Notes: a model not told the origin generated them from the sequence alone. A stretch of 64,000 nucleotides of DNA from Candidatus Peregrinibacteria bacterium (GCA_016206505.1 JACQRJ010000036.1:365-64364); one strand, 5' to 3'; shown: positions 9,224 through 32,042, numbered from the stretch's first letter. Made by a program: numbers and translations.

Positions 9224-9321
9224 AAAGCCCGAGATATAGAAAATTCACACTTGAAAATAAAAGCTTGATAAAAGCGCAACATGTAGTAGCATTCATCCCC
9301 AGTATTGAATTACCGCACATC

Positions 9322-16700: not shown

Positions 16701-18229
16701 CGGAAGCAAAAAAAACAGCCCTGGCACTAAATCTCAGTGAAATTCACCTACGAGCTGCGGAAGCCCACATCCGTCTCGGCCACAAAACCGAACCGGAAAG
16801 TGCTCTCACAAAATACGCCCGGCTATCTGCAAAAGCACCCGAGGCAAAAGTCCAGGAAGGCGAAAGAGGCTTTCGTTACAAAGTTCTGCGTCTAAAAGCC
16901 GCTTTTGCACAAAGATCCCGGGAAAAACTCGGAGAAGCGCTTACAGAATTGGAAGGCGCGCCCGAACTTGTCGCTTTAAGAACTGCCCTTAAAGAAGCTA
17001 CCGTTGTTCAAGACACAGGATTACAACCCCATGTCATGATCGCCTATGGAGAACTCATTATCGCAAAATTAAGACTTGCGGGAGCCAGACAAAGTCAGGA
17101 AGCACAGGAAGCATTGGATGCGGTTCTTCCGGAAGCGGAAAATATCATCGCAATGCTAAAAACGGATACAACATCTGCCGAAATTAAAGCTCTGCGAATT
17201 GACATCGAAAGAACAATCGCTATCAACGAAGCTCATATTTTCCGCAAACAAATTCGTGGCAACGTCGAAGATGCCTTATACATGGAAGAATTCACTACTG
17301 AGCAGCAAGCAAAAGCGGCAGAACTGGAACAAACACTGATCGGAATTTTGCAAACCTATCTTACAGACACACAATTGGTCAGAGATCCCCAAACTCTGGG
17401 CTTTCTGTACGAAAGAATAGTTGAAATGCAAATTATTCAAGACCATCGCGACGAAGCCAGAAAAACAACAGAAAGAGGTCTTCGTTTAAGCCACAACTGG
17501 GGCATTCCGGAAGCAGTCAGCGCTTTAAACATGCTTGCTGGCGATGAAAAGACAACACAGCAAATTGCCAAAATCGACCTTACACATATGGAAACCATCG
17601 ATTCTGCAAAACATTTTGACGAAGCACTGCTCATAGAAGCTCTGGAAAACTATACCCAGGGAATTTTGGCAATGGAAAGAATGGGAGCCACAAATGCCGT
17701 GCACATCCAAACCAATGTCGTAAACAGAACAACTTGCATGGCACTATATGCATTTTCAAAGCTTGCAAAAAATCCGGAATTTGACACCAGCAAAAGCAAT
17801 ACAGCAATGATAATGCGCATGCCAACAATCGAAACCGTACAAGAAATGGAAGCGTTAAAGGCACAAATCCGGGAAACCTGGAATGTGATGATTAGAGTTC
17901 TGTTACAATTAAGAGACAACTACAACCCTGCAAAACCTGCAAACGAGCCGCAAAACCAAGCATACTTGCAGGAGTTAAGCGGATTGGGACTGCTTTATAA
18001 AGCCGCGCGAAGAATAGGAATAAGCGACATTGCCATCCCGGATTTCATCGACACTTCAGAAATTTTATCCGAACGTCAATACTTACAACAAATTGACGAA
18101 AAACCACAAAAACCGCTATCACAAGCCGACAAAAAGTATCTCAAATTAAGAAAAGAAGGCATAGTAGCTCTTATACCTGGCGGCGAAGATACAACAATTT
18201 CTCTGGCAGACCTTGATGAATTGCTGTAA
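13730..18229 (+). CDS. Giant STAND/AAA_16-type NTPase (paralogue B), same architecture as paralogue A
   Basis: TVGREKEIADLNATLEAV...FTIINGEAGIGKTRHA (nt ~15275-15298). LQLILDDLQWFDELS. SEGLPIVISETVALL. Long helical tail. It is collinear with paralogue A from the N-terminal modules to the C-terminal LRKEGI motif. Confidence 0.85.
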   Translation: MATTGNPDATDPDIEDPLAAPTRPLPLIKPTQALPLNEPTQLLVKKPKNPDENPKGTADTKFQKEYLASSPEAIREPAGQKAASQAGIERDGELKEMPGAILDIELRLSSHFKTDQYPKKAFAIVKSAIAHFQGALLHFIPTPKGYLRCQCIFPNRAQAHNAAVYIHQNTDNDPDHHAPIKKAKFGLAQDQSHLATCNGHLLVFGNAARMAMKLQHANPETAEVPVVATYEHSADTEKETILGNSLREEKIEEKKPLHSRETERSRNHAHEAVRLPNPDLPQVASRVEIRFPRNLAQNPAETLKIATGFIDAIAPHPMSKGSKYSPTHAILTGQILTIYLPEERAPGNLGERLESMEQEIRKNGLIIILSHSRYSAVALDEDNHTFQGALPPSATLGEDLDLDTEKGSAGIYLDDHFKEAASHERNASIAVFVTETKASLQVPKAVRLTATQRKKTGRDSELHHENLYKVQRIEIAKEAVVKGRFTVGREKEIADLNATLEAVRDGKTAKFTIINGEAGIGKTRHAVDAIRLAEEKGYCSVYYKTPENGKTSSLTGVRRMTKSLLAKLGGDAGETFRDLQFFSLGIVPPGEIDAYGKRVEALNQNQVLAAERLTALIVQCAQTRPLQLILDDLQWFDELSIAILTRVIQEIPQETPLHLALLGRSGEEPIPQDLTDAMSARAGHYHETSLRRIGNAAQIRAELLEEEPEMHDPQLQDRIDQKRFKLTKDYIYSNLPENCADAEIADGFVWKILEISEGLPIVISETVALLLEEGKIELRGSSISTPSNAELDTMKKDSTSETLSTIIQAKFDRLSEDEKTIIDYLVVLRETDLRLFAGLLKYLRLSEERIRQSLSALSQKGLIRTNPVGFTHDLIQKQRRDQLKDIGSLSRKAAACYLPLAANRSRFANLISPSQLFELLEIALENPEEHRIKVRTKLLEAQVPLGLEAADHSLQVQNQYRALQIVETLESQLTSEFAPYLYPPKSEEPDAEAKKTALALNLSEIHLRAAEAHIRLGHKTEPESALTKYARLSAKAPEAKVQEGERGFRYKVLRLKAAFAQRSREKLGEALTELEGAPELVALRTALKEATVVQDTGLQPHVMIAYGELIIAKLRLAGARQSQEAQEALDAVLPEAENIIAMLKTDTTSAEIKALRIDIERTIAINEAHIFRKQIRGNVEDALYMEEFTTEQQAKAAELEQTLIGILQTYLTDTQLVRDPQTLGFLYERIVEMQIIQDHRDEARKTTERGLRLSHNWGIPEAVSALNMLAGDEKTTQQIAKIDLTHMETIDSAKHFDEALLIEALENYTQGILAMERMGATNAVHIQTNVVNRTTCMALYAFSKLAKNPEFDTSKSNTAMIMRMPTIETVQEMEALKAQIRETWNVMIRVLLQLRDNYNPAKPANEPQNQAYLQELSGLGLLYKAARRIGISDIAIPDFIDTSEILSERQYLQQIDEKPQKPLSQADKKYLKLRKEGIVALIPGGEDTTISLADLDELL

Positions 18230-18239
18230 TTTGCGGCTC

Positions 18240-19859
18240 ATGAAAAAATTATTTCAATTAACAACAATCGGCCTTTTTATCTTCCTGATGCCATTTGAAG
18301 CGATGGCATTTTACGAAGATGTTGCAGAAAATCATCAATACTACAATCCCATCAAAGCATTGTACGAACTTCAAAAACTGCCTGAAGACACAAATTTCAA
18401 ACCGGACGACAAACTTACCAACTCAAATTTCTACAAGCTTCTAAGCACTTTTGGAGGCACGAAAATTGCAACCGATGAAAATCTGAATCCTGCAAATTTT
18501 CCGCCAAAACATCGCATCCTCTCCGAAATGTTTTACTACCTTGGCATCGGCACCAATTATCTCTTTGATAAAGAAAATTTCTATTTCCTGGATTTGGACA
18601 AAAATTCACCCCTCTCCCCCATCGCCCAAAAAGCTTCAGAAATCGGCATTGTCGAAGACAAAGAAGATCAGCAATTTTTCAAAATGGCCCAACGCCTTAC
18701 AAATGCGCAGGCCGCCGACTATTTATACAAAATTTACCTCTACAAAAACCCCGATGCTCTGGAAGAAAAGCCCAATGCCATCAATATAATCACCATCACA
18801 GAAACCACGGAAGATACGCGGGAACTTGGCACTTTTGTCGATGTCTGGAACGTCTTAAAAAACTATTATTTTTACAAGGAAGAACTCGATGAAGAAGCGA
18901 TGATTTACGATGCCATAGAGGGCTTGCTCAAGACCGTACCCGATGATTACACCGGATTTAGCGAACCTTCCGAAGCGGAAGAATTTTTTGACAGTCTGGA
19001 AAATGAATTTGAAGGCATCGGCATTATGATCGAAATGGTCAATGAACAGGTCACAATCATCAGCCCCCTTGCCGATTCCCCAGCTCAAAAAGCCGGACTT
19101 CTGCCCAATGACATTATTTCAAAAGTTGACAATGAAAGTATCACCGGCCTAAATCTCGATGCTGTAGCCAAAAAAATCAAAGGCCCCGCACAAACTGTCG
19201 TAAAAATCACGGTTTTGAGAAATGAAAAAGAGCTCATTTTTGAAGTCACCAGACAAAAAATAACCCAGGAAGCCGTAACCGGCAAAATTATCAAGGAAAA
19301 TGGCAAAAAAATCGCCTATATCAAATTGACCACTTTTGGCCAAGATACGGCAAAAGAATTGGAAAAAACGGGCAAAGAACTTTTGCTCGACAATCCCAAA
19401 GGATTCATTCTCGATCTGCGCAACAATCCCGGCGGCTACCTCAACTCCGCCATCGAGATGGTCGGCCTGTTTTTGAAAGAAGAAAAAACAGTAGTAAAAG
19501 TCAAATCGGCAAGCGGCCTAACGGAAGAATATAAAAGCGCCGTCGATGGAACTCTTGCCGGACAAAAAATCGTCATCATTATCAACAAAGGCTCCGCTTC
19601 CGCTTCGGAAATCCTAGCCGGCGCGCTGCAAGATCATGAAATCGCGACATTAATCGGCACAATTTCTTTTGGCAAAGGCACCGTTCAAAACATCAAAAGC
19701 TACAAAGACGGCTCGATTTTCAAATACACTATGGCCAAATGGCTCACCCCAAAAGACCGCGACATCGATAAAATCGGTCTGACTCCGGACAAAATCATCG
19801 AAAACGACACTGCAACAACAGAAGACGAACAGCTAAAAGCGGCTTTGGCGGAGTTCTAA
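18240..19859 (+). CDS. ctpA: Carboxy-terminal processing protease (S41 family) with a PDZ domain and signal peptide
   Basis: Signal peptide MKKLFQLTTIGLFIFLMPFEAMA. PDZ-like segment GIGIMIEMVNEQVTIISPLADSPAQKAGLLPNDII. S41 motifs LDLRNNPGGYL and GSASASEILAGALQD. The track ORF starts at 18213; ATG 18240 avoids overlapping the upstream gene. Confidence 0.85.
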   Translation: MKKLFQLTTIGLFIFLMPFEAMAFYEDVAENHQYYNPIKALYELQKLPEDTNFKPDDKLTNSNFYKLLSTFGGTKIATDENLNPANFPPKHRILSEMFYYLGIGTNYLFDKENFYFLDLDKNSPLSPIAQKASEIGIVEDKEDQQFFKMAQRLTNAQAADYLYKIYLYKNPDALEEKPNAINIITITETTEDTRELGTFVDVWNVLKNYYFYKEELDEEAMIYDAIEGLLKTVPDDYTGFSEPSEAEEFFDSLENEFEGIGIMIEMVNEQVTIISPLADSPAQKAGLLPNDIISKVDNESITGLNLDAVAKKIKGPAQTVVKITVLRNEKELIFEVTRQKITQEAVTGKIIKENGKKIAYIKLTTFGQDTAKELEKTGKELLLDNPKGFILDLRNNPGGYLNSAIEMVGLFLKEEKTVVKVKSASGLTEEYKSAVDGTLAGQKIVIIINKGSASASEILAGALQDHEIATLIGTISFGKGTVQNIKSYKDGSIFKYTMAKWLTPKDRDIDKIGLTPDKIIENDTATTEDEQLKAALAEF

Positions 19860-22800
19860 GCATAAGCCGTATCTTTTGCGTCTCGATAACGCTCATAGAC
19901 AAAATTATAGACCTCGATCCCTTTAATGTCGCATTCCTGCTGTGAATAGGTTGGTTCCGGTAACGAATTGTAGAGAATATCGATAATTGTCGTTTTAACG
20001 CCTGCCCTTGCCGATTCTTTTTCTCGCCAATCAAGCACTAACTTTTCTTTTTTGAGTTTTGCCAATAATTCGTGAGAAGCCTTTCTAACTTTTTCAACTT
20101 CGTCAGGGTTCAGATTTTCCTTTAAGAGCAGGTCGAAAATTGCCAGTTCCTCCTCGCTCAAATTTTCTTTAACTGCTCGCTGTTCTTCTTTATCCAAACT
20201 CTTTGCCAAATCAACCAGATCATTCAAGAGTTGGTCGACATCGTGTGCTCCGCTGTTGTAAACCTGAAGTATTGCATTTAAACGATCCATGAAGCGCCCT
20301 CGCTTTTTATTGCGTTCCATCATCTCTTCTATTTTTTCTTCAAGCTCAGTTTTCATGCTCTCAGCTTGCAAATTCTTATTTTCCAGACCAGCAAAGAATT
20401 CATGGAGAGCATTGGCATCGAGACTACTCAAATCTTTAACGCGTTTATGTTGCGGGATGACATATTCGCCTGCCTGAATGGATTTATCGAGCAGGTCTTC
20501 CAAATCCTTTTGCACCTGTGAAACATCGATGCTTTCTCCAGTAACAAGACGAATCCGTTGAGCAATCGTACGAATAGCTGCTACCTGATCGTAATAATCT
20601 TCTGCGTCAGGTGCCGGCAATACAGACTGGTAGGCGCTTTGTAAATCACTCGCAAGGTTCAAAAATGCCTTTTTCTTCTCCGGTTGGCCGACAATGGTGT
20701 TTGCATATTTCTCTATCAAAAGCAATTTTTGCTCATTTGGAACCTTCAAGAGAACATTTATATCAATCTGCTCACCCTGCAAAAATTCTTTCACCGATTC
20801 GAGCAGGTTTTTTAATTGGCTCACCAGTTCATCTTTGCTCCGAATAATGTCGTTTTCATCGGCACCGTTGGCAGCATAGAGTGCAAGAGCTCGCTCAATG
20901 TTCTTGAACACGCCTATATAATCGACAATCAGTCCATTTTTCTTGCCCTCAGCTACACGATTGGCACGAGCGATGGTCTGCATGAGGGTGTGATTTTTTA
21001 GCGGTTTATCGAGGTACAGTGTTGAAAGGTTTGGCACATCAAATCCCGTCATCCACATGGCGCACACAAAAACGATGCGAAGATCACTGTCGGATTTCTT
21101 GAATTCCTCTTCAAGGTTCTCTTTCTGCATACGTTCACGCAATGGGCGCATATCAATGTCGAACGGTTCCAGATCGGCAATTTCGTTCTGGCTCTGGCTC
21201 ACCACGACGGCCATATCAACATCTTCATGTCGCTCGAGTTGTGCCTCTACCTTCGCCTGTCCCCTCTCATTTTGCGTTCTGGATAGATCCATGCGGAGTT
21301 TGGCCAAATAACGCTCCCATTCGGCCTTTACTTTGGCATACATCCGCACGGCTGTTTTTTTGTCTACAGAAACCACCATCGCCTTGCCGTCGTATCCCCG
21401 TCCGACAAAATGCTCCACAATATCACGCGCAATCGCATTCAAGCGATCTTCACGTGTTACAAGATGGTAAAAAGTTGAAAACTCCTGCTCCAATTTTTCT
21501 TCCGCATCTTCATTCAGATCATAAAATTCCATGATGTTGTTCATCTCTTTCTCCAACGAGTCATTTACATTTTTAAGGCGCGGCACACGGTTTTCGTAAA
21601 ATAACGGCACGGTCGCACCATCAGCTACTGATTGGCCGAAATTATAGATCGATACATATTCACCGAAAGTCTCCCGCGTTTTTTCTTCACCGTTGGCCAA
21701 AAGTGGCGTGCCGGTAAAACCCATAAACGAAGCATTGGGCAGGGCTTTTCGCATATTTTGCGCCATGCGATCATACTGTGTGCGATGCGCTTCATCGGTC
21801 ATGAGAATAATGTCATTGCGTGTTGAAATAGCTCCTTCAATATCCTGAAATTTCTGAATGGTGGTAAAAATCTGGCGATGATCCTGCGCCAATAGCTCAT
21901 GCAAATGAACGATACTTTCTGCTTTTACCTCTTTTTCATAAACCGCACCTACACTGGCAAATTCCTTGTAGGCCTGACGATCCAAAGCTCCGCGATCAGT
22001 CACAATCACAAAAGTAAAATTGCCCGTCAGTTTACGCAGCACTTTTTGGGAGAGATAGACCATCGAGTACGATTTGCCAGACCCCTGCGTATGCCAAAAC
22101 ACACCGAGCTTTCCTTCGTTCTCTTTGCGATGAATCACTTTCTCAAAGGCTTTATTGACACCAAAATATTGGAAGTATCGTGGCACAATCTTTTTCGTTT
22201 CGCCTTTGGATTCATCGAACAAAATATAGTTTTCAAAAATATCCAACAGGCGCGATTTATCGCATATACCGCTGATCATTGTGGCAAGGTCGGTCTTTGC
22301 AGTATCTTCTTCACTCTCGGCCTTTTTCCACTCGTTAAAAAACTCATAGGGCGAAGTAAGTGAGCCAAATCTATTCTCTATACCGTTGGAAATCATAACT
22401 CCCATGTTGTACCAGAAGAGTTTTGGGATGGTGTCTTTGTAATCACGAAGATTATCTTTATAGGCATCCACAAGGCTTTTATGTGAAGCCTTCAGCTCCA
22501 AAAGCATCAGTGGAATGCCATTCACAAACAGCACTACATCAGGGCGACGTGTATGCATTTCACCAGTGATCCAGAGTTGGGATACACAAAGAAAGTGATT
22601 ATTTTCCGGATTTTTAAAATCAAAAAATCGCACCCTTTCAGTCTCGCTCACACCGCTTTCATTTGCCGAAATTACGCTTCCACCGTCGCGCAAAATCCTA
22701 TAAATCTCATGATTGGCATTCACAAGCGAAAGATGTGACCGATCGCGTGTAAGTTCGTCCATTGCCATGGTGAGCAATGGTTCCTGTAGTGTTGGATTGA

Positions 22801-22981
22801 GCTTTTGAAGCGCAGGCAACAAAAACTTTTTTAGTATCACTTCTCCTCGATGTTCACGGCCAAGCTTGGCATCATCTTCGTCTTTGTAGGCGTTGATATG
22901 GCATGTCTTATCATTCCACAGCTTTTTGATGAGGCTGATGACGGTTTGTTCGACGAGTTGGTCTTCTGTGAATTGGTTCAT
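19856..22981 (-). CDS. hsdR: Type I restriction enzyme R subunit
   Basis: 1041 aa. N-terminal nuclease region (RPDVVLFVNGIPLMLLELK), SF2 helicase motifs (HTQGSGKS, MTDEAHRTQ, GFTGTP, MQTIARANR) and a C-terminal HsdR-type helical domain. Confidence 0.95.
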   Translation of the reverse strand: MNQFTEDQLVEQTVISLIKKLWNDKTCHINAYKDEDDAKLGREHRGEVILKKFLLPALQKLNPTLQEPLLTMAMDELTRDRSHLSLVNANHEIYRILRDGGSVISANESGVSETERVRFFDFKNPENNHFLCVSQLWITGEMHTRRPDVVLFVNGIPLMLLELKASHKSLVDAYKDNLRDYKDTIPKLFWYNMGVMISNGIENRFGSLTSPYEFFNEWKKAESEEDTAKTDLATMISGICDKSRLLDIFENYILFDESKGETKKIVPRYFQYFGVNKAFEKVIHRKENEGKLGVFWHTQGSGKSYSMVYLSQKVLRKLTGNFTFVIVTDRGALDRQAYKEFASVGAVYEKEVKAESIVHLHELLAQDHRQIFTTIQKFQDIEGAISTRNDIILMTDEAHRTQYDRMAQNMRKALPNASFMGFTGTPLLANGEEKTRETFGEYVSIYNFGQSVADGATVPLFYENRVPRLKNVNDSLEKEMNNIMEFYDLNEDAEEKLEQEFSTFYHLVTREDRLNAIARDIVEHFVGRGYDGKAMVVSVDKKTAVRMYAKVKAEWERYLAKLRMDLSRTQNERGQAKVEAQLERHEDVDMAVVVSQSQNEIADLEPFDIDMRPLRERMQKENLEEEFKKSDSDLRIVFVCAMWMTGFDVPNLSTLYLDKPLKNHTLMQTIARANRVAEGKKNGLIVDYIGVFKNIERALALYAANGADENDIIRSKDELVSQLKNLLESVKEFLQGEQIDINVLLKVPNEQKLLLIEKYANTIVGQPEKKKAFLNLASDLQSAYQSVLPAPDAEDYYDQVAAIRTIAQRIRLVTGESIDVSQVQKDLEDLLDKSIQAGEYVIPQHKRVKDLSSLDANALHEFFAGLENKNLQAESMKTELEEKIEEMMERNKKRGRFMDRLNAILQVYNSGAHDVDQLLNDLVDLAKSLDKEEQRAVKENLSEEELAIFDLLLKENLNPDEVEKVRKASHELLAKLKKEKLVLDWREKESARAGVKTTIIDILYNSLPEPTYSQQECDIKGIEVYNFVYERYRDAKDTAYA

Positions 22982-22985
22982 AGAT

Positions 22986-24485
22986 TTATTGAGTTATTTC
23001 GGGCAAATATAACTTTAAAATTTCTATCAAGCTTTGCCTTTTATCAGAAGACAAAAAACTGAGCACTAAATTTTTGTACCCATTTTTCGAGAACTCTATT
23101 TTACCCTGTATTTCATTAACAAGGCCTTTATGTGGATATGCCTTCAGTATTTCTGTAATTTCAGCATCATGCTCTGGTAAGATTACTGTTGCCAGTGCGT
23201 CTAATTCAGAGAAAATAGCATTTTTAAAATTATCATAGTCTTCGGTACTTTTTACCGCTCCAAATTTTTCACCTAAATGCCTGTGCATGCGATTTTTTGA
23301 GGCAGCAAAAACTACTTTTTCTTTATTTGCTGCATAAATTTTCTTTATTTCTGCGATGATTTCGTCTTTTTTATCTGTCTTCGACAAATGGGTACAAACC
23401 ATTTCAACTATTTCTGGTACAAGGAATAGATTCTCAACTTCATTGAGTGTGATGCTGAAAACTCCTGCTTCCTTTAACGCCGCTAGCTGTTCATCGATAC
23501 GAAAATCTTTATCCATGAGTCCATAAACTTTTTTATCATGCAGGTGATTATGGGTTTTAAGACCCTTCACTGCCTCAATAACTTTTTCGCAAGAACCGCA
23601 GGGTATAACTGTAAAGTTTTCGTAGTATGCCTGATAGATTTGAATATCGAGAGAGCCCTTATTTCCTTCAACAAATAATATTGGCTTTCTACTACCTAAC
23701 ATTTCAAGAAAAAGATTTTCTGGCACTACTTCATTAGGATCAATCTCTTTCCAATCCCATAAATTATTCTTGAAACTCTGAATCCAGATGAGCTTGCTTG
23801 AAGGCTTACTGACGGCAAAATCAAGGTCGTGAGTTATGTAAATAAAAGTACAATCATTCCTATGTTCTTCTAACTTATTCCATAAGCGCACCATTAAAGC
23901 TTTGTGTAAGTGCAACTCCGGCTCGTCGATAATGAAAATGCAATTTTTCTCAGCAAGGAGAATTTGAGAGATCAAATATAATCCAACTTTTTCACCATCA
24001 CTCATCTGCGTGCCCGAAAAATCATCAGCCCGAACTTTGTCTTTTTCAAGCTTCAGGGAGCGATAAGGAAAAATTAAATTCCACACTTCTATGACTTTCT
24101 CTTTTGTTGAGGTAGGAGTTTCCGCTTTTGTTATTTGCCCTTTCGTATTAATAGTGTTAATAACGTCTTCATTCCTTTTCGACTCTTCGGCAAACAAAGA
24201 AATTAGCACTTGCGGATAATCATTTTGAGGCTGGATGGACTCTTGATTCTTATAACTGCCTTTCAATTGGCTGCTGGCTGTCTCATAATCCTGTTTTTGC
24301 ACTACTTCATTCAGTTGCAAATATCTTTGTGCTGAAATTCTTTTGGTAGGAGTATTTATCTGCTCAAGTTTAGAACCAAGACGTGATTTACCGGCTCCGT
24401 TAGCTCCAACGAGGACTAAATTTTTCTCTATCTTGAGAGCTTCATTCCCACTCTTTCCTGATGATGGAATCTGTATGTCTTTCAT
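22986..24485 (-). CDS. Fused ABC-type ATPase + Toprim (DUF4435-like) protein, OLD/PARIS(AriA-AriB)-like, embedded in the Type I R-M operon
   Basis: Walker A LVGANGAGKS, signature-like QMSDGEK, Walker B IFIIDEPELHLH and H-loop ITHD. The C-terminal half has PILFVEGNKGSLD (Toprim Glu) and GLMDKDF (DxD). Confidence 0.8.
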   Translation of the reverse strand: MKDIQIPSSGKSGNEALKIEKNLVLVGANGAGKSRLGSKLEQINTPTKRISAQRYLQLNEVVQKQDYETASSQLKGSYKNQESIQPQNDYPQVLISLFAEESKRNEDVINTINTKGQITKAETPTSTKEKVIEVWNLIFPYRSLKLEKDKVRADDFSGTQMSDGEKVGLYLISQILLAEKNCIFIIDEPELHLHKALMVRLWNKLEEHRNDCTFIYITHDLDFAVSKPSSKLIWIQSFKNNLWDWKEIDPNEVVPENLFLEMLGSRKPILFVEGNKGSLDIQIYQAYYENFTVIPCGSCEKVIEAVKGLKTHNHLHDKKVYGLMDKDFRIDEQLAALKEAGVFSITLNEVENLFLVPEIVEMVCTHLSKTDKKDEIIAEIKKIYAANKEKVVFAASKNRMHRHLGEKFGAVKSTEDYDNFKNAIFSELDALATVILPEHDAEITEILKAYPHKGLVNEIQGKIEFSKNGYKNLVLSFLSSDKRQSLIEILKLYLPEITQ

Positions 24486-24487
24486 GG

Positions 24488-25720
24488 TTATGCTTTTAAA
24501 GTTCGTTTGCCAGTGACCAATTGGGGAACAAGAAGGTCGCGCATCTTACAGAGATTTTGATTTTCCTTTTGTAAGATCGCTATCTGCTGAAGTAAATTTG
24601 CTGCCAGCTTTTCATACCGTTCCAACACGTATTCAGTTGGTAGAATCATTTTTGCATCAACAACAGTGTCTCTGCGCAAATGTTGCATAGTGGCACCAAC
24701 GGCTTGTTTGCTCAATTTTTCAACCAGTCTTGTCAGTGCATAAAAAACAAATGATCTATAAAGATCTAACTTTGGAGAGACTAAAAATAAGTGCTGATTG
24801 AGAAGTGCATGACCAGAATTCCAGATATTTACGAGCAATGTAGCTGACCAAGAAAAAATGATATCTCCATTTTTAATACGATATTTTTCAGGGATATTTT
24901 CACCATCATTCCTTGGTGTCTTCTCGAGTATTCCTGACCGCAATTCCGGTATCTTTATTATTGGCAAACCACTATCCCCTAAGTCCTTAGGTTTGAATGG
25001 ATATCCGTTAACAAAACTAGCCATTGTCCCAATTGGAACAATCTGCCATCCCTCTGGAATCATGCCGTACTCAGTGCCACTGTCGACCATTTTTGTTGCC
25101 TCATGGCCAGGGAATTTGAATTTCACAAACCACTCTATATAGAGAAGTTGCGCCATTCCTTCCAATCCCTTGATGCGTTTTTGGTTGTTTTCGATGAGGT
25201 CGTCGTAGGCAGAAAGAACTGAGGAAATATGTTTTTGCATTTCAATATCTGGCAGTTTAATTTCAAAATTTTCAATATCACTTTTTGTTAGAGCCTCCCG
25301 TGTAGCCCCAGTTGTTGCTAAACCATATAATGCTCGTTTATACAGAGGGCTTACCAAAGCGTATTTAAGGTATTTTCCAGAAAGGTTTTTTCTATCTGCC
25401 CGAATTATTGAAACATGCTGATTAACCCGAGCAGGAATAAGATTGTCAGGGACGGAAGTGCACCTGCATACAGAAGCTCCTGTGATATTTAGCAGAACAT
25501 CATCTTTTTCAACTATAACATTGGCTAATTGTTTAGCCTGAGAATCATCGATAAAGGCCAAATTATCGTAAATAAAATTCAAATCATATATATTCAAGCT
25601 TCTGATCAAAGGTGTTCCTTCGTGATGATAAGCACCTTTTCCGCCACGCGGAGTAGCGCCACTGCCAATTTTAGTGGTTACATCCTTCAGTTTTTTTATA
25701 TTCCAAGTTGCCATAAACAT
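24488..25720 (-). CDS. hsdS: Type I restriction-modification specificity subunit
   Basis: 410 aa with two target-recognition halves. These are separated by the conserved helical spacer LIENNQKRIKGLEGMAQLLYIEWFVKF and end with LQKENQNLCKMRDLLVPQLVTGK. Confidence 0.9.
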   Translation of the reverse strand: MFMATWNIKKLKDVTTKIGSGATPRGGKGAYHHEGTPLIRSLNIYDLNFIYDNLAFIDDSQAKQLANVIVEKDDVLLNITGASVCRCTSVPDNLIPARVNQHVSIIRADRKNLSGKYLKYALVSPLYKRALYGLATTGATREALTKSDIENFEIKLPDIEMQKHISSVLSAYDDLIENNQKRIKGLEGMAQLLYIEWFVKFKFPGHEATKMVDSGTEYGMIPEGWQIVPIGTMASFVNGYPFKPKDLGDSGLPIIKIPELRSGILEKTPRNDGENIPEKYRIKNGDIIFSWSATLLVNIWNSGHALLNQHLFLVSPKLDLYRSFVFYALTRLVEKLSKQAVGATMQHLRRDTVVDAKMILPTEYVLERYEKLAANLLQQIAILQKENQNLCKMRDLLVPQLVTGKRTLKA

Positions 25721-25727
25721 ATAAAAA

Positions 25728-26009
25728 TTATTTCTTCATTCCCTTAAGCACCTTCTTAATCCTCTTCACATACTCCTCATTTTCACCAGTCTCCGTATAC
25801 CGATTCACCGGATCGCTACAAACAGCGCACTTGCCCCTAAGAATAACGTCGTTCAAATCATTCACAGTAGTCTTAAAATCAACAATCGTCACGACTTCAT
25901 TGCAGGTATGACAAAGGCAATTTGGTACGATTTTCTCCACAAAAAAATCCCAGTCTTTCCCCCAGATGGTTTTGAGTTGCGGTAACGTGAGTGGCATTTC
26001 TTTTTTCAT
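25728..26009 (-). CDS. Small zinc-ribbon protein (93 aa) inside the R-M operon
   Basis: Cys pattern CLCHTC...x25...CAVC. It is tightly packed, 3 nt after the rhuM stop and 7 nt before the hsdS start. Confidence 0.6.
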   Translation of the reverse strand: MKKEMPLTLPQLKTIWGKDWDFFVEKIVPNCLCHTCNEVVTIVDFKTTVNDLNDVILRGKCAVCSDPVNRYTETGENEEYVKRIKKVLKGMKK

Positions 26010-26012
26010 AGG

Positions 26013-27071
26013 TTATTTTTTCTTAGGCTGTTTTAAAGATTTCTTTGCTTCCGTTTCCAACTTCTTCACCTCCCGATCAAAGTCGGAAAGATAATTTTCA
26101 TCCTGAATAACACGATATTTTTCATATTCCTTTAACGCAAGCGACTCCGCGACCTCATGACTGATTTTCCCTAAGTCTCCCAATATTTGTCGCTCGTTAA
26201 ATTTTAAAAACGCATCCAGCTTTGATACCCAGTCTTTCATATACATAATAATCCCGCGTTTAGCCTGCATCTCTGCAAAATCAAGATACATGGTCACGAT
26301 CCTATTGAGGTGATCGAGTTCTTTTTCATTGAGATAGTTTTTAGCAATCACAACATCGGACTCCCTGATGCTGCCCTTTGGAGAATTTTTCCAAACAGTC
26401 AGTCCCATGTGCATCTTCGTGCTATCCGCTCTTTCATATATAATTTCAGCGGCAGTTTTGCCCGTCATGGCAAAATGAAGTTTATTTTGCACCGTTGCGA
26501 AAAATTGTTTGGTAATGTCGTTGTCGGGAGAATAGTCTGCACTGCATTGCGCGTATATGTCAGTTATCTTCTGATACATACGCCTTTCGCTTGATCTTAT
26601 GTCCCTTATTCGAGCCAGTTGCTCTTCAAAATAGTCATGCCCAAAAATAGTGTTTGGATTTTTGAGCCGCTCATCATCCATGGTAAACCCTTTGATGATG
26701 TACTCCTTGAGTCTTTCCGTTGCCCAAATACGAAACTGCGTAGCCTGCCCTGAATTTACGCGGTATCCAACGGAAATAATGGCATCCAGATTATAAAATT
26801 TCGTTTTATATTGCTTCCCGTCTTCCGCAGTTATTTCCAAAATGGAAATAACTGAATCTTCCTGCAGCTCTCCACTTTCAAAAATATTTGAGAGATGCTT
26901 GTTGATAGCAGGAATTCCGACGTCAAAAAGTTCGGCCATTCTTTTTTGCGTAAGCCAAATATTTTCATCTTTCAAGAAAATCTCGACTTTTACTTTTCCA
27001 TTTGGACTGGTGTAAAGCAAAAACTCAGTAAAGCTGTTATTTGGGACTATTTGTTGATTCTTCTTTTTCAT
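26013..27071 (-). CDS. rhuM: RhuM-family protein (Virulence_RhuM)
   Basis: 352 aa. FLLYTSPNGKVKVEIFLKDENIWLTQKRMAELFDVGIPAINKHLSNIF...YNLDAIISVGYRVNSGQATQFRIWAT...RSSERRMYQKITDIY is the characteristic RhuM pattern. Confidence 0.85.
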   Translation of the reverse strand: MKKKNQQIVPNNSFTEFLLYTSPNGKVKVEIFLKDENIWLTQKRMAELFDVGIPAINKHLSNIFESGELQEDSVISILEITAEDGKQYKTKFYNLDAIISVGYRVNSGQATQFRIWATERLKEYIIKGFTMDDERLKNPNTIFGHDYFEEQLARIRDIRSSERRMYQKITDIYAQCSADYSPDNDITKQFFATVQNKLHFAMTGKTAAEIIYERADSTKMHMGLTVWKNSPKGSIRESDVVIAKNYLNEKELDHLNRIVTMYLDFAEMQAKRGIIMYMKDWVSKLDAFLKFNERQILGDLGKISHEVAESLALKEYEKYRVIQDENYLSDFDREVKKLETEAKKSLKQPKKK

Positions 27072-27089
27072 AATAAATTACGTTAAATA

Positions 27090-27266
27090 TTATTTTTTAT
27101 TTACCGTGGTGGCATCAATAAATTCAAAGCTGTTCATTAAAAACCACTCGCATGGATCAAGCAATTTTTCACACAACGGACACTGGTAGTCAACGTTGCC
27201 AACCTGAATTGCATTTTTATAATCATGTCGGCAAATTTTTTTCTTATTTTTGAGGCGTTTAGTCAT
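27090..27266 (-). CDS. Small Cys-rich (putative zinc-finger) protein, 58 aa, inside the R-M operon
   Basis: MTKRLKNKKKICRHDYKNAIQVGNVDYQCPLCEKLLDPCEW... The track ORF (27090..27326) overlaps the hsdM 3' end; the internal ATG at 27266 lies 13 nt after the hsdM stop. Confidence 0.45.
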   Translation of the reverse strand: MTKRLKNKKKICRHDYKNAIQVGNVDYQCPLCEKLLDPCEWFLMNSFEFIDATTVNKK

Positions 27267-27279
27267 AATTTTAGATAAG

Positions 27280-28857
27280 CTATATAATCTTCTTCCAATC
27301 CTCCATGATCTTTTGTTCAAGCCCATGAGCCTCTTTTGTAAGGGAGGTGAATTCGCCCATAAGCTCTTTCATGCGTGCGTCAAAATCCACATCGCTTAAC
27401 TCTTTTTCGACAATCTCCACATAACGGCCAGGATTGAGAGAATAGTCGTTTGCACGCACATCATCGAGCGTCACAACTTTGCATCGACCTTTGATGTCTT
27501 CGTATTTTTCATAGCCTTCTTCACTTCGATAACGCCGTACAATGGCTGCAATTTCTTGTATCTGCGCATCCGTCCATGTGCTGTGTGCTCGGTCAATTTC
27601 CGTGAAAATATCTTGCGCATTAATGAAGAGGATTTTATTTTGCCTATCAGTACCATGTTTTCGCTTATCAAAAAACCAGAGCGTGCATGAAAGCGTAGCG
27701 TTTAAAAACATGTTTGTACCAACCGAGACAATGACGTCCACCGTGCCAGCCTCAATCATTTTTTTGCGGATTTCTTTCTCGGCATTTCCTGCATCACTGG
27801 CTGAATTGGCCATAACAAAGCCCGCGCGCCCTTGCTTCGAAAGTGCGCTCGCGAACATCTGCATCCAGAGATAGTTGGCGTTGCTGATTTCATTTTTGCC
27901 CGTAAGCGGCAGTCCAAGGTAATAACGCGGATCACCGTGCAAACGCGCGGGATCAATGGTCATTTGCCCGTTTTTATCTTTTCCTTTCACGTTAAAAGGC
28001 GGATTTGCCAGTACAAAATCAAATTTCCCCACACTCTCAAACGGGTCTTCATAAAAACTGTTCACCAGTTGAATTTTTCCGGAAAGGCCGTGAATTGCGA
28101 GGTTCATCTTGGCAACACGCATTGTTGAGTCTGTTTTTTCTTGGCCATAAATAGCCACTTCTTCCATAACCTGTTTTGAATTTTTCAAATGTTCGGCAAC
28201 AAAGCGAGCTGACTGGACAAACATGCCTCCACTACCGCAAGCAGGATCGAAAATACGGCCATGGTAAGGCTCAATAACCTCTACAAGAAGCTTTACGATT
28301 GATTGCGGCGTAAAGAACTCCCCACCTTTGGAACCTTCGGCTCGTGCAAAGTTACCAAGAAAATATTCGTAAATTTCTCCAAAAGCATCCCCCTCGATAT
28401 CGTCGGGAATTTGGTTAAAGTTTTTGAGCAGAGTTATGAGGATTCTGCTGTTTTCGTCTGCCTTTTTGGAGAGTTCGGTGTAATCCTGTGGCAATACGCC
28501 TGCAAGGTCTCGATTTTCGGCTTCAATCGCTTTCATGGCCTCATTAATAGCTTTTCCGATGTTTTCAGCCTCAGAAAGGCTCATAAGGTGCGAATACGTC
28601 GCGGTCTCCGGAATGTAGAGCACGCCCTTTGATTTATAGTCATCGGGCATTACGAAACGCACACGGGTCGACTGCGTTTGATTTCTCTCTTTTTCTATTT
28701 GTACTTTTGCTCTTTTAAAACGGACATCGGCAAACTTAAGGAAAATAAGTCCCAAAATCGGTTCACTAATTTCATTAAGCTTGAGGCTTCCATTGGCGCG
28801 AAGTTGCTCAGCTGCAGCCCAGAGTTTTTCTTCAAGTTGTTTGCGATGAATTGGCAT
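27280..28857 (-). CDS. hsdM: Type I restriction-modification N6-adenine DNA methyltransferase subunit
   Basis: 525 aa. HsdM N-terminal helix bundle (LWAAAEQLRANGSLK...ILGLIFLKF), SAM motif IFDPACGSGGMF and catalytic FDFVLANPPFN. Confidence 0.95.
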   Translation of the reverse strand: MPIHRKQLEEKLWAAAEQLRANGSLKLNEISEPILGLIFLKFADVRFKRAKVQIEKERNQTQSTRVRFVMPDDYKSKGVLYIPETATYSHLMSLSEAENIGKAINEAMKAIEAENRDLAGVLPQDYTELSKKADENSRILITLLKNFNQIPDDIEGDAFGEIYEYFLGNFARAEGSKGGEFFTPQSIVKLLVEVIEPYHGRIFDPACGSGGMFVQSARFVAEHLKNSKQVMEEVAIYGQEKTDSTMRVAKMNLAIHGLSGKIQLVNSFYEDPFESVGKFDFVLANPPFNVKGKDKNGQMTIDPARLHGDPRYYLGLPLTGKNEISNANYLWMQMFASALSKQGRAGFVMANSASDAGNAEKEIRKKMIEAGTVDVIVSVGTNMFLNATLSCTLWFFDKRKHGTDRQNKILFINAQDIFTEIDRAHSTWTDAQIQEIAAIVRRYRSEEGYEKYEDIKGRCKVVTLDDVRANDYSLNPGRYVEIVEKELSDVDFDARMKELMGEFTSLTKEAHGLEQKIMEDWKKII

Positions 28858-28865
28858 TTTTGCCT

Positions 28866-28894
28866 ACAATAAAATACAGGCGCATCTTAGCCAA
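28866..28894 (-). promoter_or_regulatory. Candidate hsdM promoter TTGGCT-17-TATTGT, ending 8 nt before the ATG (near-leaderless transcript)
   Basis: The minus strand reads TTGGCTaagatgcgcctgtatttTATTGTaggcaaaaATG. Confidence 0.3.
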
Positions 28895-28910
28895 AGCACG
28901 CCATCTTCAC

Positions 28911-28932
28911 AACGCCAAAACCCTTTGGCGCC
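28911..28932 (-). terminator. Stem-loop immediately after the VirB4-like stop
   Basis: The minus strand reads GGCGCCAAAgggtTTTGGCGTT: 7 Watson-Crick pairs plus 2 G-U pairs. The U-tract is weak. Confidence 0.35.
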
Positions 28933-31434
28933 CTACACCTTCTTCTCCACCGCCACCTGTTTCTGCGCCAAAAGCTCTTCGGGATTTGTGGTGACGATTT
29001 TGTCTTCCGTATAAGAAGCGATTACCTGAATCGCCACATGCTTCAAGCCGGCAAAGAAAAGCCCCTGCCCCACTCCGCTATTCAACAAAACATACTTTTC
29101 ACCTTCCGTCAGATTGAAAATCTTGGCCAAAGTATCCACGGAAGAAGGCGCCTGCTTCAGCAGCAATTGAATCGAAGAATTGGTCACAATCGGCTTACCA
29201 TAGTCACTTTTCACGAAATCTTCCACGTCTTGAGTGATGGTAGAAACGCCCAAATAATACTTTCTTGCCCTTTTCACCAAACCAAACAAAAACTTCGCAC
29301 TATCCTCATGCTGCATCATCGTCCAGGCCTCATCTATGACCAGTATGCGCTTTTTAAGCTCGCTTCTCACCCTGTTCCAGATATAATTCAAAACGATATG
29401 CATGGCAATCGGCCTCAATTCATCTTCCAAATCCCTGATACAAAAAACCATCATGCCGCTTGATAGATCGACATTGGTCGGCTTGTTGAAAATTCCGGCA
29501 TAAGAACCGGTGGTAAATTTCGAAATGCGCTGCACCAAAGAAGCCGCACCATCCATGGAATTCAAAATTTGATGCAAATCTTCCATCGTCGGCGGCGCAA
29601 ATTTGGTCGGATCAACAATATCCATTGTAATGCCCTTCATCGCATACACATCAATCAAAGCTTTGTCCATCAAAGCTTCCTCTTCAGGACTCATGCCCTT
29701 CACCATCAACTTCAAAAGCCCCTGCAAAGTTATGACATTCGATCGCAAAATATCACCCGCCTGATACTCCTCACCCTCCACAGGTTTCGGCAGATCAAAA
29801 GGATTGATACGACGATCACTGTTCAAACTCAAACGCAGATAACTTCCTCCCACAGTCGTAGCCAAGGCTTCATATTCGTTTTCCGGATCGATCACAATCA
29901 CATCGGTTCCCATCATCATCAGGCGCAAAATTTCCAATTTCACCGCATAAGATTTACCTGCACCGGATTTGGCAAAAACCACACTATTGGCATTTTCCAG
30001 CGCAAAACGATCAAAAATAATCAAACTGTCATTATGCCTGTTCAATCCATACAAAATTCCACGATCCGAAGTCAGATCCGAAGAAGTAAACGGAAAAGTT
30101 GTGGAAAGCGGCCCTGTATTCATATTGCGAATGACATAAAGCTCATCCAGACATTGCGGAATTGTCGCATTGAATCCATGTTCCGCCTGCAATTGACATC
30201 TCTTTGTCATTACAAGTTTTCCAGCCAATAAACTTTCCAGCTGCTTGGCAACACGTTCGAGTTTTTTCTCACCATCCGCATAAACCGTAAAATAAAGTGC
30301 AAATTGGAAAAATTTTTCCTGGCCTCTCTGAATCTGCGTTCGCAACCTTTCAGCATCCTCCAAAGCAGTCTCCAGTCCCGGATCCCTCACCTGTCCCTTA
30401 TCGGCCATAATATGCAAACTGGATTGCATCTGCGCGACCTTTTTCTTCAGCGTCTTCATGATCTTTTCGGAATCAATCGGATAGATAAATTGGGAAATAT
30501 CCATCGTCACATCAAAATTAATAATCGGCGCCAGCCAGTTTGTATCCAGATAGCGCGGATAAGCGTAAACATAAAAAGATCTGGCATATTTGCCATCCAT
30601 TTTCAGACTGTCATAACGAACATCCAGCGAAGACGGCGCAATCATATCTTTCACAGTCGCCAAGCCTTCATGATAAATTTTTTCCGCTTCAATAAATTCC
30701 TTGCGTTCCTGTGGGGTCAAAAGAGATTCTTTACCTGCTTTTGCAGATCCCTTGGCATCAGTAAGTTCACCAGCCTTGCCAGCAGCCTCTGCCAAAGCCA
30801 GGTCGCCAGTCGGAATGGCGCCATCCAAAACCACCGTTTTTTTCTTCCCAAAAGGCAAAAGCGCTTTCAATTTATCGAAAAAAGACATTTTAGCGGTAGC
30901 ACCCTGTGTAGCACTTTTTGCTTCGGGAACGGGCGTCGAAGAAAAAATATTCTCGCCTTTGGCAAGTTTTTTGCCGGTTTTTGGATCATATCCCGCTTTC
31001 ATCAATTTTTCCGCAGCCTCAAGATCGACTTTATGCACAACTTCCAGAGAAGGAGTGATTTCAATATAAGAATTCGGATCAATTCCCAGCTCGGTCGAAG
31101 TAGGCTTATCGGCTTTCAGATTCACCACAGGAGCACTTGCAGACACAGCGTCCACAAGAGCTGCGGGCACAGCCTCTGCAAGACCTGCCGATGCAGCTTT
31201 CAAATCTACAATTTGATCTTTACCGCCTACCTCAGCATTTGTGGCAAGCTCACTTGAAGCATCCGCAAGCCATCCCGGAGTTGCAATTTCTTCATCTTTC
31301 GGCTTGGCAAAAATTCGCCCCGTCCCAACGATACCCTGCACCGCCTCAGTAGCCTGCACGGCCGCAGGAGCTTGCACATTAGCTACAACCTGCCCTGCGC
31401 CTAACTGCGTATTTTGATTTTGATCTTCCGCCAT
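28933..31434 (-). CDS. VirB4/TraC-like type IV secretion ATPase with a ~250-aa low-complexity N-terminal extension
   Basis: SVVFAKSGAGKSYAVKLEILR (Walker A), ILVIDEAWTMMQHEDSAKFLF (Walker B), YYLGVSTITQDVEDF, and upstream YARSFYVYAYPRYLDTNWLAPII, which is typical of Gram-positive-type VirB4. Confidence 0.85.
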   Translation of the reverse strand: MAEDQNQNTQLGAGQVVANVQAPAAVQATEAVQGIVGTGRIFAKPKDEEIATPGWLADASSELATNAEVGGKDQIVDLKAASAGLAEAVPAALVDAVSASAPVVNLKADKPTSTELGIDPNSYIEITPSLEVVHKVDLEAAEKLMKAGYDPKTGKKLAKGENIFSSTPVPEAKSATQGATAKMSFFDKLKALLPFGKKKTVVLDGAIPTGDLALAEAAGKAGELTDAKGSAKAGKESLLTPQERKEFIEAEKIYHEGLATVKDMIAPSSLDVRYDSLKMDGKYARSFYVYAYPRYLDTNWLAPIINFDVTMDISQFIYPIDSEKIMKTLKKKVAQMQSSLHIMADKGQVRDPGLETALEDAERLRTQIQRGQEKFFQFALYFTVYADGEKKLERVAKQLESLLAGKLVMTKRCQLQAEHGFNATIPQCLDELYVIRNMNTGPLSTTFPFTSSDLTSDRGILYGLNRHNDSLIIFDRFALENANSVVFAKSGAGKSYAVKLEILRLMMMGTDVIVIDPENEYEALATTVGGSYLRLSLNSDRRINPFDLPKPVEGEEYQAGDILRSNVITLQGLLKLMVKGMSPEEEALMDKALIDVYAMKGITMDIVDPTKFAPPTMEDLHQILNSMDGAASLVQRISKFTTGSYAGIFNKPTNVDLSSGMMVFCIRDLEDELRPIAMHIVLNYIWNRVRSELKKRILVIDEAWTMMQHEDSAKFLFGLVKRARKYYLGVSTITQDVEDFVKSDYGKPIVTNSSIQLLLKQAPSSVDTLAKIFNLTEGEKYVLLNSGVGQGLFFAGLKHVAIQVIASYTEDKIVTTNPEELLAQKQVAVEKKV

Positions 31435-31463
31435 TTAAACTTTTAGCTCAAATATATCCTGAT

Positions 31464-31492
31464 ATTTTAGCAGAAAATCACTTTTTTTTCAA
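31464..31492 (-). promoter_or_regulatory. Promoter TTGAAA-17-TAAAAT upstream of the VirB4-like gene
   Basis: The minus strand reads cTTGAAAaaaaagtgattttctgcTAAAATatc. The -10 ends 29 nt upstream of ATG 31434. Confidence 0.45.
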
Positions 31493-31505
31493 GAAGCCGA
31501 AACGC

Positions 31506-31555
31506 AAAAAGCGGTCCAGCCGCACCCCCGCCACGGCGGGTGGAGAACGCTTTTT
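31506..31555. terminator. Bidirectional rho-independent terminator-like structure
   Basis: AAAAAGCG (31506-31513) pairs with CGCTTTTT (31548-31555). Inside are the TCCA/TGGA and CCCGCC/GGCGGG stems. A-tract on one side, T-tract on the other. Confidence 0.5.
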
Positions 31556-31598
31556 CAACTTTCTCACCTTCGCAAGAACACTTTTAAAAATCCCGAAT

Positions 31599-31620
31599 TT
31601 GTCCGTACATTGTCCGTACA
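31599..31620. repeat. Exact tandem direct repeat, 2 x TTGTCCGTACA, followed by a partial inverted copy (GGACA at 31626-31630)
   Basis: Direct reading: aatTTGTCCGTACATTGTCCGTACAaatttGGACAtt. Confidence 0.9.
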
Positions 31621-31689
31621 AATTTGGACATTACAAAAAGCTTTCCCACCGCATATAACAAATTAAAAACAGCGTTTTCCAGAGGTTCT

Positions 31690-31893
31690 TTATTGTTGTA
31701 GCGCCGCATCAAACCTCTGACGCGCCTGCTGTCTAAGCTTACCAGGATCAGGCTCCTGCCCTTGCCGAGTTTCAATACCACCAGTCTGATCCATAGAGGG
31801 AACAGCATATAAATCCTCCACTGCAACAACACCACCTTCAAAAGGATAATAACTACCTTCATCATATCCCCCTTCAATTGAACCTCCAGCCAT
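31690..31893 (-). CDS. Possible small acidic protein (67 aa), unknown function
   Basis: The ORF is visibly GC-richer than the flanking AT-rich spacer and is followed by the terminator at 31506-31555. No family recognised and no RBS. Confidence 0.3.
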   Translation of the reverse strand: MAGGSIEGGYDEGSYYPFEGGVVAVEDLYAVPSMDQTGGIETRQGQEPDPGKLRQQARQRFDAALQQ

Positions 31894-32042
31894 AAATTTT
31901 TAATTAAATAATAAAACAAACAACAAATAAAGCATCGCACCAAAAATCTCAAAAAAATCCCGACTGAACTTCCTAAAAAGAAAACTGGCAGCTTGTTTAA
32001 AAGGAAAAAAGACCATCACAAAACTTCGCCTCCAATGCTATG

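Follow-up and report, generated by a model that had tools for sequence, protein, structure and literature searches.

Type I restriction-modification enzymes mark the cell's own DNA by methylation and cleave DNA which lacks this mark. A 'guilt-by-embedding' survey has catalogued the defence genes embedded in Type I, BREX, DISARM and Hma systems and defined the PDC candidates which are now part of PADLOC; embedded genes were co-oriented with the host system in 96.7% of cases, and in the supplement RhuM is one of the embedded families, with an embedded cassette recorded which was merged into the PARIS model (bioRxiv 10.1101/2024.01.29.577857). Single cases include PrrC in EcoprrI, the classical example of a protein guarding a Type I enzyme (PMC12707154), TgvAB embedded in a Type I operon of Vibrio cholerae (PMC11411939), and the RRDM island of enteropathogenic Escherichia coli, which has the order rptR-hsdM-hsdS-darT-darG-hsdR plus one more open reading frame (ORF) and in which the hsdS-hsdR junction was called a likely recombination hotspot (PMC12255303). 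PARIS is encoded by two genes or by a single fused gene and is triggered in E. coli by the anti-restriction protein Ocr (PMC9122126, PMC11464382). Its AriB nuclease cleaves tRNA-Lys (PMC11464382; PMC12707154), and E. coli PARIS senses Ocr directly, with no restriction system needed (PMC12707154). Here we compare with these systems a seven-gene Type I operon which carries a single-chain PARIS gene, a rhuM gene and two mini-genes. It lies in a 64,000 nucleotide (nt) stretch of DNA from Candidatus Peregrinibacteria bacterium (GCA_016206505.1 JACQRJ010000036.1:365-64364); this whole stretch is termed the window, and coordinates count from its start.

The ORF listing placed seven minus-strand genes, all in one orientation, at 19856-28857. 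In 5' to 3' order (protein lengths in amino acids, aa) these were:

hsdM, 27280-28857, minus strand: 525 aa, Type I N6-methyladenine (m6A) DNA methyltransferase subunit
mini1, 27090-27266, minus strand: 58 aa from the second ATG, CxH…CxxC zinc-binding mini-protein
rhuM, 26013-27071, minus strand: 352 aa, RhuM family, PADLOC candidate defence gene PDC-S05
mini2, 25728-26009, minus strand: 93 aa, zinc-ribbon protein
hsdS, 24488-25720, minus strand: 410 aa, Type I specificity subunit with two target-recognition domains
ariAB, 22986-24485, minus strand: 499 aa, single-chain PARIS, ABC ATPase plus DUF4435/Toprim
hsdR, 19856-22981, minus strand: 1041 aa, Type I restriction/translocase subunit

The gaps measured from hsdM to hsdR were 13, 18, 3, 7, 2 and 4 nt, in agreement with a sequence-only reading of this DNA which had described seven minus-strand ORFs 2-18 nt apart; the gene identities given there were likewise all correct by Pfam and PADLOC assignment. 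All catalytic motifs examined in the operon proteins were intact. We consider it likely that this is a complete Type I operon with an EcoR124I-related HsdR, belonging to a lineage with two cargo slots for defence genes between its subunit genes, and that PARIS, RhuM and the mini-genes work in layers with the restriction enzyme. In this arrangement slot A, between hsdM and hsdS, holds mini1 and RhuM/PDC-S05, followed by a lineage-typical mini2 abutting hsdS, and slot B, between hsdS and hsdR, holds the single-chain PARIS.

The Type I core is identified by strong matches to each subunit (E-values in brackets). HsdM matched Pfam N6_Mtase PF02384 (4.8e-85) and HsdM_N PF12161 (4.9e-21) and PADLOC MTase_I (1.2e-190), with the catalytic motifs DPACGSG at residue 204 and NPPF at 285. 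HsdS matched Pfam Methylase_S PF01420 in two stretches, corresponding to two target-recognition domains, and PADLOC Specificity_I over residues 5-405 (4.5e-116). For HsdR, the Pfam domains HSDR_N PF04313, SWI2_SNF2 PF18766, T1R_D3-like PF22679 and T1RH-like_C PF11867 together with PADLOC REase_I (3e-186) and the motifs D148…E162-L-K, GSGKS300 and DEAH396 describe a nuclease, a superfamily 2 motor and a C-terminal domain; its nearest solved structure was EcoR124I HsdR (1.6e-36). By sequence, all parts of a Type I restriction-modification operon are present, and sequence-specific m6A methylation and ATP-dependent restriction of unmethylated DNA are predicted for it. That it is instead a methylation-associated defence system (MADS) and not a Type I operon with passengers is very improbable. 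PADLOC did return weak matches of mad2 to HsdM (6.8e-39), mad5 to HsdS (9e-35), mad3 to AriAB (2.5e-14) and mad8 to an ATPase encoded upstream of the operon (4.8e-20), but the Type I and AriAB models were far stronger (1.2e-190, 4.5e-116, 4.5e-111) and a canonical HsdR is present. Furthermore, the upstream ATPase passes the cut-off of a VirB4-like CD1110 family and is not conserved beside sister operons. As the Mad matches scored 50-130 bits and those to the Type I and AriAB models 370-633 bits, membership in the mad1-mad8 set was rejected.

The gene between hsdS and hsdR, read from sequence alone as an OLD/PARIS-like nuclease-ATPase, proved to be a single-chain PARIS. The PADLOC fused AriAB model PDLC02982 matched the 499-aa protein over residues 7-498 (4.5e-111). 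Its ATPase part matched AAA_21 (3.3e-9), SMC_N (1.2e-9) and ABC_tran (1.7e-5) and keeps GANGAGKS27, SDGE162, IFIIDE183 and THD218 (Walker A, ABC signature, Walker B and H-loop), and the fused module at residues 266-479 is DUF4435 (PF14491, 7.7e-16, 59 bits vs a cut-off of 27) with the Toprim acidic motifs VEG272 and DKD325. A sequence search against solved structures gave no significant match for AriAB. Seven metagenomic relatives of the protein were retrieved, five of them informative. In four loci (L064, L065, L066, L067) the relative has 69-73% identity and starts 4-5 nt after hsdS, and in two of these (L064, L067) hsdR follows directly; in the fifth (L068, 66% identity) it follows a C5-methylase cluster. 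Close relatives thus adjoin restriction-modification genes in 5/5 informative loci, a small sample. In L066 the AriAB protein is 68.5% identical to that of the window, while HsdM, HsdS and HsdR are only 41%, 26% and 32% identical, which indicates that ariAB has moved between Type I systems with its position kept. Placement in relatives, in few loci, is the strongest evidence here and favours a functional tie between AriAB and restriction-modification.

The earlier idea that a first-line restriction system has a second-line module built into it is plausible, the fused gene being a single-chain PARIS with four relatives directly after hsdS, and the proposed working would be as follows. The seven genes would be transcribed together and the Type I enzyme would cut incoming unmethylated DNA. 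Were a phage to block restriction with an Ocr-like protein, the AriAB ATPase would sense the blocker and switch on the Toprim nuclease; the activated nuclease would cut tRNA and growth would stop, as in two-gene PARIS. RhuM would contribute an independent anti-phage activity. For the mini-proteins the most likely role is that of small regulators or adaptors which bind nucleic acid or protein, mini2 perhaps serving the hsdS/hsdR part and mini1 perhaps the variable defence cargo, assignments which are guesses.

The two slots became apparent from sister loci, which were metagenome contigs and metagenome-assembled genomes, from groundwater where the source was stated. The gene orders of six of these are as follows:

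L013: hsdM, mini2, hsdS, a 287-aa gene, DUF4143 ATPase (PDC-S01), hsdR
L001: hsdM, Bro-N (PDC-S13), mini2, hsdS, a 242-aa gene, hsdR
L005: (cut), mini2, hsdS, an 84-aa gene, SEC-C protein, hsdR
L009: hsdM, mini1, RhuM, mini2, hsdS, SocA_Panacea, a 91-aa gene, DUF4143 ATPase (PDC-S01 type), hsdR
L071: hsdM, DUF4143 ATPase, mini2, hsdS, three unknown genes, hsdR
L073: hsdM, a 106-aa gene, SLFN/AlbA_2 ATPase, mini2, hsdS, PDC-S32, AbiP2 reverse transcriptase, hsdR

In blastn comparisons of the window with its sister loci only hsdM, mini2, the hsdS conserved regions and hsdR aligned, at 68-82% nucleotide identity, and the genes between them were replaced from one locus to another. Homology restarted exactly at the hsdR ATG. 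In HsdS the alignment was restricted to the central and C-terminal conserved regions; since these alone align, the recognition domains differ from those of the sister loci. Because only core genes align and the intervening genes differ, this Type I lineage has two cargo slots, filled as follows:

Slot A (between hsdM and hsdS): empty in L013; Bro-N/PDC-S13 in L001; DUF4143 ATPase in L071; 106-aa gene and SLFN/AlbA_2 in L073; mini1 and RhuM in the window and L009
Slot B (between hsdS and hsdR), PARIS: AriAB in the window, L064 and L067
Slot B, small or SEC-C genes: 242-aa gene in L001; 84-aa gene and SEC-C in L005
Slot B, PDC-S01 ATPases: SocA_Panacea, 91-aa gene and PDC-S01-type ATPase in L009; 287-aa gene and PDC-S01 ATPase in L013
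Slot B, other: three unknown genes in L071; PDC-S32 and AbiP2 reverse transcriptase in L073

Cargo is exchanged between sister loci. Several occupants matched PADLOC defence or candidate models and several others matched none. The left half of the window operon was colinear with L009 at ~80% nucleotide identity over 3.1 kb and the right half is arranged as in L064, so that the window looks like a mosaic of an L009-type left half and an L064-type right half. The full seven-gene set was present in none of the retrieved loci. A repeat search of the locus found neither inverted repeats of the hsdS-shuffling type nor repeats flanking the cargo.

Such exchange would also be seen if the junctions were simply recombination hotspots and the cargo independent of the enzyme, co-location giving shared transcription and joint transfer without any guarding. 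This account of pure hitch-hiking is a real possibility, though on balance we do not think it the probable one. It fits with the diverse and mechanistically unrelated slot cargo (AbiP2 reverse transcriptase, PDC-S01 ATPase, SocA_Panacea, Fic and SEC-C proteins), with the presence of DarTG2 at the same hsdS-hsdR site in E. coli, named a probable recombination hotspot (PMC12255303), and with the finding that cloning either E. coli PARIS or PDC-S05 by itself is enough for protection (PMC9122126, PMC12881386). A 70-nt duplicated hsdR 5' end beside the inserted ATPase gene of L009 also resembles a recombination footprint. It fits poorly with the AriAB clade, which was next to restriction-modification genes in all five informative loci and kept its post-hsdS position in a distant Type I system, and the known PARIS trigger is itself an inhibitor of Type I enzymes.

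The duplication in L009 lies at 6656-6725 of that contig and is 95.7% identical to window 22985-22916, upstream of the inserted DUF4143 (PDC-S01-type) ATPase gene. The hsdR which follows the insert (footprint regions 6656-6725 and 8300-10393) lacks the part equivalent to window 22683-21622, and the whole looks like the footprint of a cargo insertion by recombination at the hsdR start. The same contig has a split hsdM (1456-3068), with a 473-aa gene and a 63-aa ORF corresponding to the HsdM C-terminus, the result of a frameshift or an assembly error.

The sequence-only reading had counted four passenger genes between the subunit genes, and this count did not hold for mini2. The gene was found directly 5' of hsdS, with a gap of 2-23 nt, in L001-L015 and L071-L073 wherever the downstream gene was visible, a pairing which covers every retrieved contig with a visible downstream gene and which is based on five homologue clusters of 62-89% identity. 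It holds in six other architectures, including L013, where mini2 is the sole gene between hsdM and hsdS. As the pairing persists while other genes change, mini2 belongs with hsdS and not with the cargo. The protein has conserved cysteines at positions 31, 33, 36, 61 and 64, and profile searches retrieved homologues in at least 134 clusters, or 289 representatives from an exhaustive library. Against these homologues the ratio of non-synonymous to synonymous substitution rates (dN/dS) was 0.085-0.19, and the non-synonymous divergence of mini2 parallels that of hsdM and hsdR across loci. No above-threshold match was found in Pfam, PADLOC v2 or NCBIfam, and PHROGs gave nothing useful. The match to DUF5679 (PF18930; 1.7e-4, 22.1 bits) is below the cut-off of 27, with the zinc-ribbon core alone in common, so that mini2 is not assigned to that family. 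An AlphaFold2 model of good confidence (predicted local distance difference test, pLDDT, 91.9) consisted of a helix, a zinc-ribbon sheet and a helix, and this model had no counterpart at E <= 0.001 in the Protein Data Bank (PDB) or among viral predicted structures; there was just a local likeness to the NrdR zinc ribbon.

The constant position raises the question of a dedicated fourth Type I component, which would regulate hsdS-hsdR translation or transcription or bind the methyltransferase core, for example delaying restriction in a new host. We regard this as somewhat unlikely. Its placement directly 5' of hsdS (2-23 nt) whatever the other cargo, even as a lone gene between hsdM and hsdS, and the divergence parallel to hsdM and hsdR are what such a component would show, and the confidently modelled zinc ribbon resembles, locally and in a predicted structure, the DNA-binding ribbon of NrdR. 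Set against these are its absence from L064, the 38-55% identical homologues in other contexts, the fusions to PRiA4_ORF3 and the lack of any significant structural or family match. The contexts of these distant homologues include, in L061, the last position of a Type IIG-like methylase cluster and, in L074, a site downstream of a helicase/MmeI-type methylase cluster. Fusion of the mini2 domain to PRiA4_ORF3 (PF07929) was seen in 3/10 long homologues, in either order; as a clue to mini2 function it was of no help, that domain being itself without known function. Two giant proteins (3251 and 1406 aa) contain six to seven repeats of a mini2-like domain. The proteins with fused or repeated mini2 domains are P0214, P0242, P0277, P0297 and P0307.

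The second mini-gene, mini1, behaves differently. Its longest ORF (27090-27326, 78 aa) would overlap hsdM, and homologues begin at the 58-aa ATG. The protein is 100% identical to one annotated in a Candidatus Peregrinibacteria metagenome-assembled genome and has homologues in 86 protein clusters at 55-86% identity, in which the motif C12-x-H14…C29-x2-C32 is invariant; its dN/dS against homologues was 0.06-0.24. Neither Pfam, PADLOC nor NCBIfam gave a match, and in PHROGs there was one, phrog_24073 (4.5e-4), a family without assigned function. The AlphaFold2 model was of modest confidence (pLDDT 73.6), and this low-confidence model gave no match to the PDB at E <= 0.001, with generic zinc-ribbon/zinc-finger overlaps alone. 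Loci with mini1 were found in 43 species-level genomes (L016-L058) of Patescibacteria, Omnitrophota, Planctomycetota, Gammaproteobacteria and others, in most of which it shares the strand of its neighbours and lies close against them, with variable partners. RhuM/PDC-S05-type genes adjoin it in ~9/43 genomes, and other neighbours were AntA (5), Cas3_HD (3), Fic, RadC, methylases, Bro-N and DUF1016 proteins. A role as dedicated RhuM partner was consequently rejected as a strict rule, and mini1 is best regarded as a small gene under strong constraint which occurs in defence neighbourhoods and crosses phyla. We also observed that the gene directly downstream of it encodes a Cas3 HD domain in three genomes and an AntA domain in five, and that its 60-86% identity across Patescibacteria, Omnitrophota, Planctomycetota and Gammaproteobacteria is unusually high for a 58-aa protein without fixed partner.

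Both mini-genes are real and under purifying selection. With lengths of just 58 and 93 aa, no match to a curated family and no obvious Shine-Dalgarno sequence, they could be taken for chance ORFs or annotation noise in spacers, but that explanation is effectively refuted by dN/dS values of 0.06-0.24 (synonymous sites being largely saturated in these comparisons), by metal-ligand residues invariant across 47 and 17 sequences, by the 86 and at least 134 clusters and 289 mini2 profile matches, and by the mini2 model confidence given above. As a scan of viral contigs gave no mini1 and one weak mini2 relative, a phage origin of the mini-proteins is not supported. A stronger proposal makes both of them working parts, with mini2 as a fourth Type I gene acting on hsdS/hsdR expression or assembly and mini1 as a cross-phylum zinc-binding switch for embedded effectors (RhuM, AntA/Bro-N-type, Cas3), so that together with PARIS they would form a regulated three-layer unit; we judge this unlikely.

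RhuM was assigned by full-length matches to Pfam PF13310 (2.7e-111, profile positions 1-249 of 252) and to the PADLOC PDC-S05 model PDLC04851 (2.8e-151, positions 4-339 of 342), and a sequence search against solved structures returned nothing significant. A PDC-S05 representative from a cold-seep genome lowered T7 and T5 plating ~1000-fold in E. coli (PMC12881386); this is the one published anti-phage test of the family and was made on a different representative. The rhuM gene of the window and L009 and the unrelated Bro-N/PDC-S13 passenger of L001 and L005 have in common their last ~45 nt, just before mini2, which code for …KKSLKQ.KKK* (window 26010-26053, L001 9957-10000, L005 467-510). This suggests either a recombination junction or a C-terminal tail held in common.

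The transcription signals concern the following two features upstream of the operon:

Spacer upstream of hsdM, 28858-28932, minus strand: 75 nt, weak promoter-like match and a hairpin without T-run
Upstream neighbour, 28933-31434, minus strand: VirB4-like conjugal-transfer ATPase gene, 833 aa

The candidate promoter which had been placed upstream of hsdM is a weak match: a scan of the 75-nt spacer gave no promoter-like site with at least 9/12 matches, and the best match by eye was TTGGCT-17-TATTGT (8/12). The spacer hairpin is CGCCAAA-GGGT-TTTGGCG. On the minus strand, the closest promoter-like site of good quality is upstream of the virB4-like gene, at 31492-31464 (10/12 with TG). The earlier statement that no internal terminators are visible stands as absence of evidence alone, because terminator-like sites in the region (16 observed) are at the shuffle expectation of 13.3 ± 3.5; a weak terminator-like hairpin lies within hsdS at 25042-25023. 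Internal promoter- and terminator-like matches were no more frequent than expected from shuffled sequence. A single transcript across the seven genes is plausible, and the virB4-like gene may be co-transcribed with it.

Several points weigh against a layered working of the operon. The same slots hold many unrelated cargoes, as a neutral hotspot predicts. Because E. coli PARIS needs no restriction system, physical linkage is no proof of dependence, and the activation step is not transferable as described, because the trigger there frees AriB from an AriA hexamer and a covalent fusion cannot be freed in this way. The sister operon which lacks mini2, L064, is of similar divergence (hsdM 77%, hsdR 73%), and the mini2 homologues of 38-55% identity are found outside Type I operons; given this absence and these other contexts mini2 is accessory and not essential. 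For mini1, RhuM is the neighbour in just the ~9/43 genomes mentioned, on either side, and no fold or family assignment backs a specific role for mini1 or mini2. Finally, the hsdM promoter is weak, and read-through from the virB4-like gene could account for transcription of the operon.

That gene encodes an ATPase which matched the VirB4-like CD1110 family NCBIfam NF045971 with 375 bits (cut-off 325) and a Pfam TraG P-loop domain. It is not kept beside the sister operons, where other genes occupy the position. This upstream neighbour raises the possibility that a conjugative element or DNA-uptake apparatus has the restriction operon as its cargo. At the other end, the hsdR stop codon (minus strand) overlaps at 19856-19859 the stop of a convergent S41 peptidase gene (18213-19859, plus strand), and because of this overlap there is no space for a terminator between the two genes. 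Further out, plus-strand genes at 9265-13332 and 13730-18229 encode proteins of 1355 and 1499 aa, both very large and with AAA_16 ATPase domains; one of them also has a TPR repeat. These two proteins resemble STAND NTPases, match no PADLOC model and could be uncatalogued defence sensors. An Rfam search of window 18000-33000 gave no RNA families.

The novelty claimed by the sequence-only reading was upheld in part. Since embedding has been surveyed and both large passengers, RhuM and PARIS, are catalogued, the concept of defence genes within Type I operons was already known; the exact seven-gene set, on the other hand, was not turned up, and neither it nor the mini2-hsdS pairing nor the mini1 family was found in the literature searched. 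What is new is the pair of conserved, unannotated zinc-binding mini-protein families, the overall layout being already catalogued. The locus is a further case, from a candidate-phyla-radiation bacterium, of the documented rule that defence genes occur at Type I gene junctions, and its main value lies in these two families together with the consistent placement of PARIS by restriction genes. A single-chain PARIS clade right after hsdS, even in a distant Type I system, is what one would expect to see in genomes if it were a restriction guard, and the locus offers a natural system for asking whether PARIS-type sensors couple physically or regulatorily to the enzyme they back up. The two-slot comparison is useful for mining defence candidates because several occupants match no PADLOC model. 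The mini1 and mini2 families, being outside Pfam, NCBIfam and PADLOC, are candidates for a poorly known regulatory layer of defence islands.

Phage Mu Com is a small zinc-finger regulator which activates mom translation. The mini-proteins are like it in size (~60 aa), in having a metal-ligand motif and in their place upstream of a modification or restriction gene; with no sequence or structure similarity detected, the comparison would be one of analogy only. With the loci of the embedded-gene survey (bioRxiv 10.1101/2024.01.29.577857) and with TgvAB the present operon has in common same-strand passengers nested in a Type I operon; it differs from the survey in mini1 and mini2, which match no PADLOC v2 model. 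The RRDM island, too, is a Type I island of seven ORFs, with another defence system at the hsdS-hsdR junction and a small regulator gene in the operon. There, however, the cargo is DarTG2 and not PARIS, RptR is an all-helical repressor placed first in the operon and not a zinc ribbon before hsdS, and there is no second occupied slot. The likeness to the fusion form of PARIS (AAA_21+DUF4435 class, PMC9122126) lies in the domain order, in the nucleotide-binding and Toprim motifs and in the full-length match to the fused model, whereas the studied form is a two-protein AriA6:AriB3 complex on a P4 satellite, in which AriB is freed from the AriA hexamer, and the form described here is covalent and lies between hsdS and hsdR. 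In comparison with PrrC in EcoprrI, the effector here has a Toprim/DUF4435 domain in place of the PrrC anticodon-nuclease domain, and a hold of the restriction enzyme on AriAB which keeps it latent would be conjecture; common to both are an ABC-ATPase-type abortive-infection effector between hsdS and hsdR, which is proposed to fire upon disabled restriction, and an HsdR which here also is closest to Type IC.

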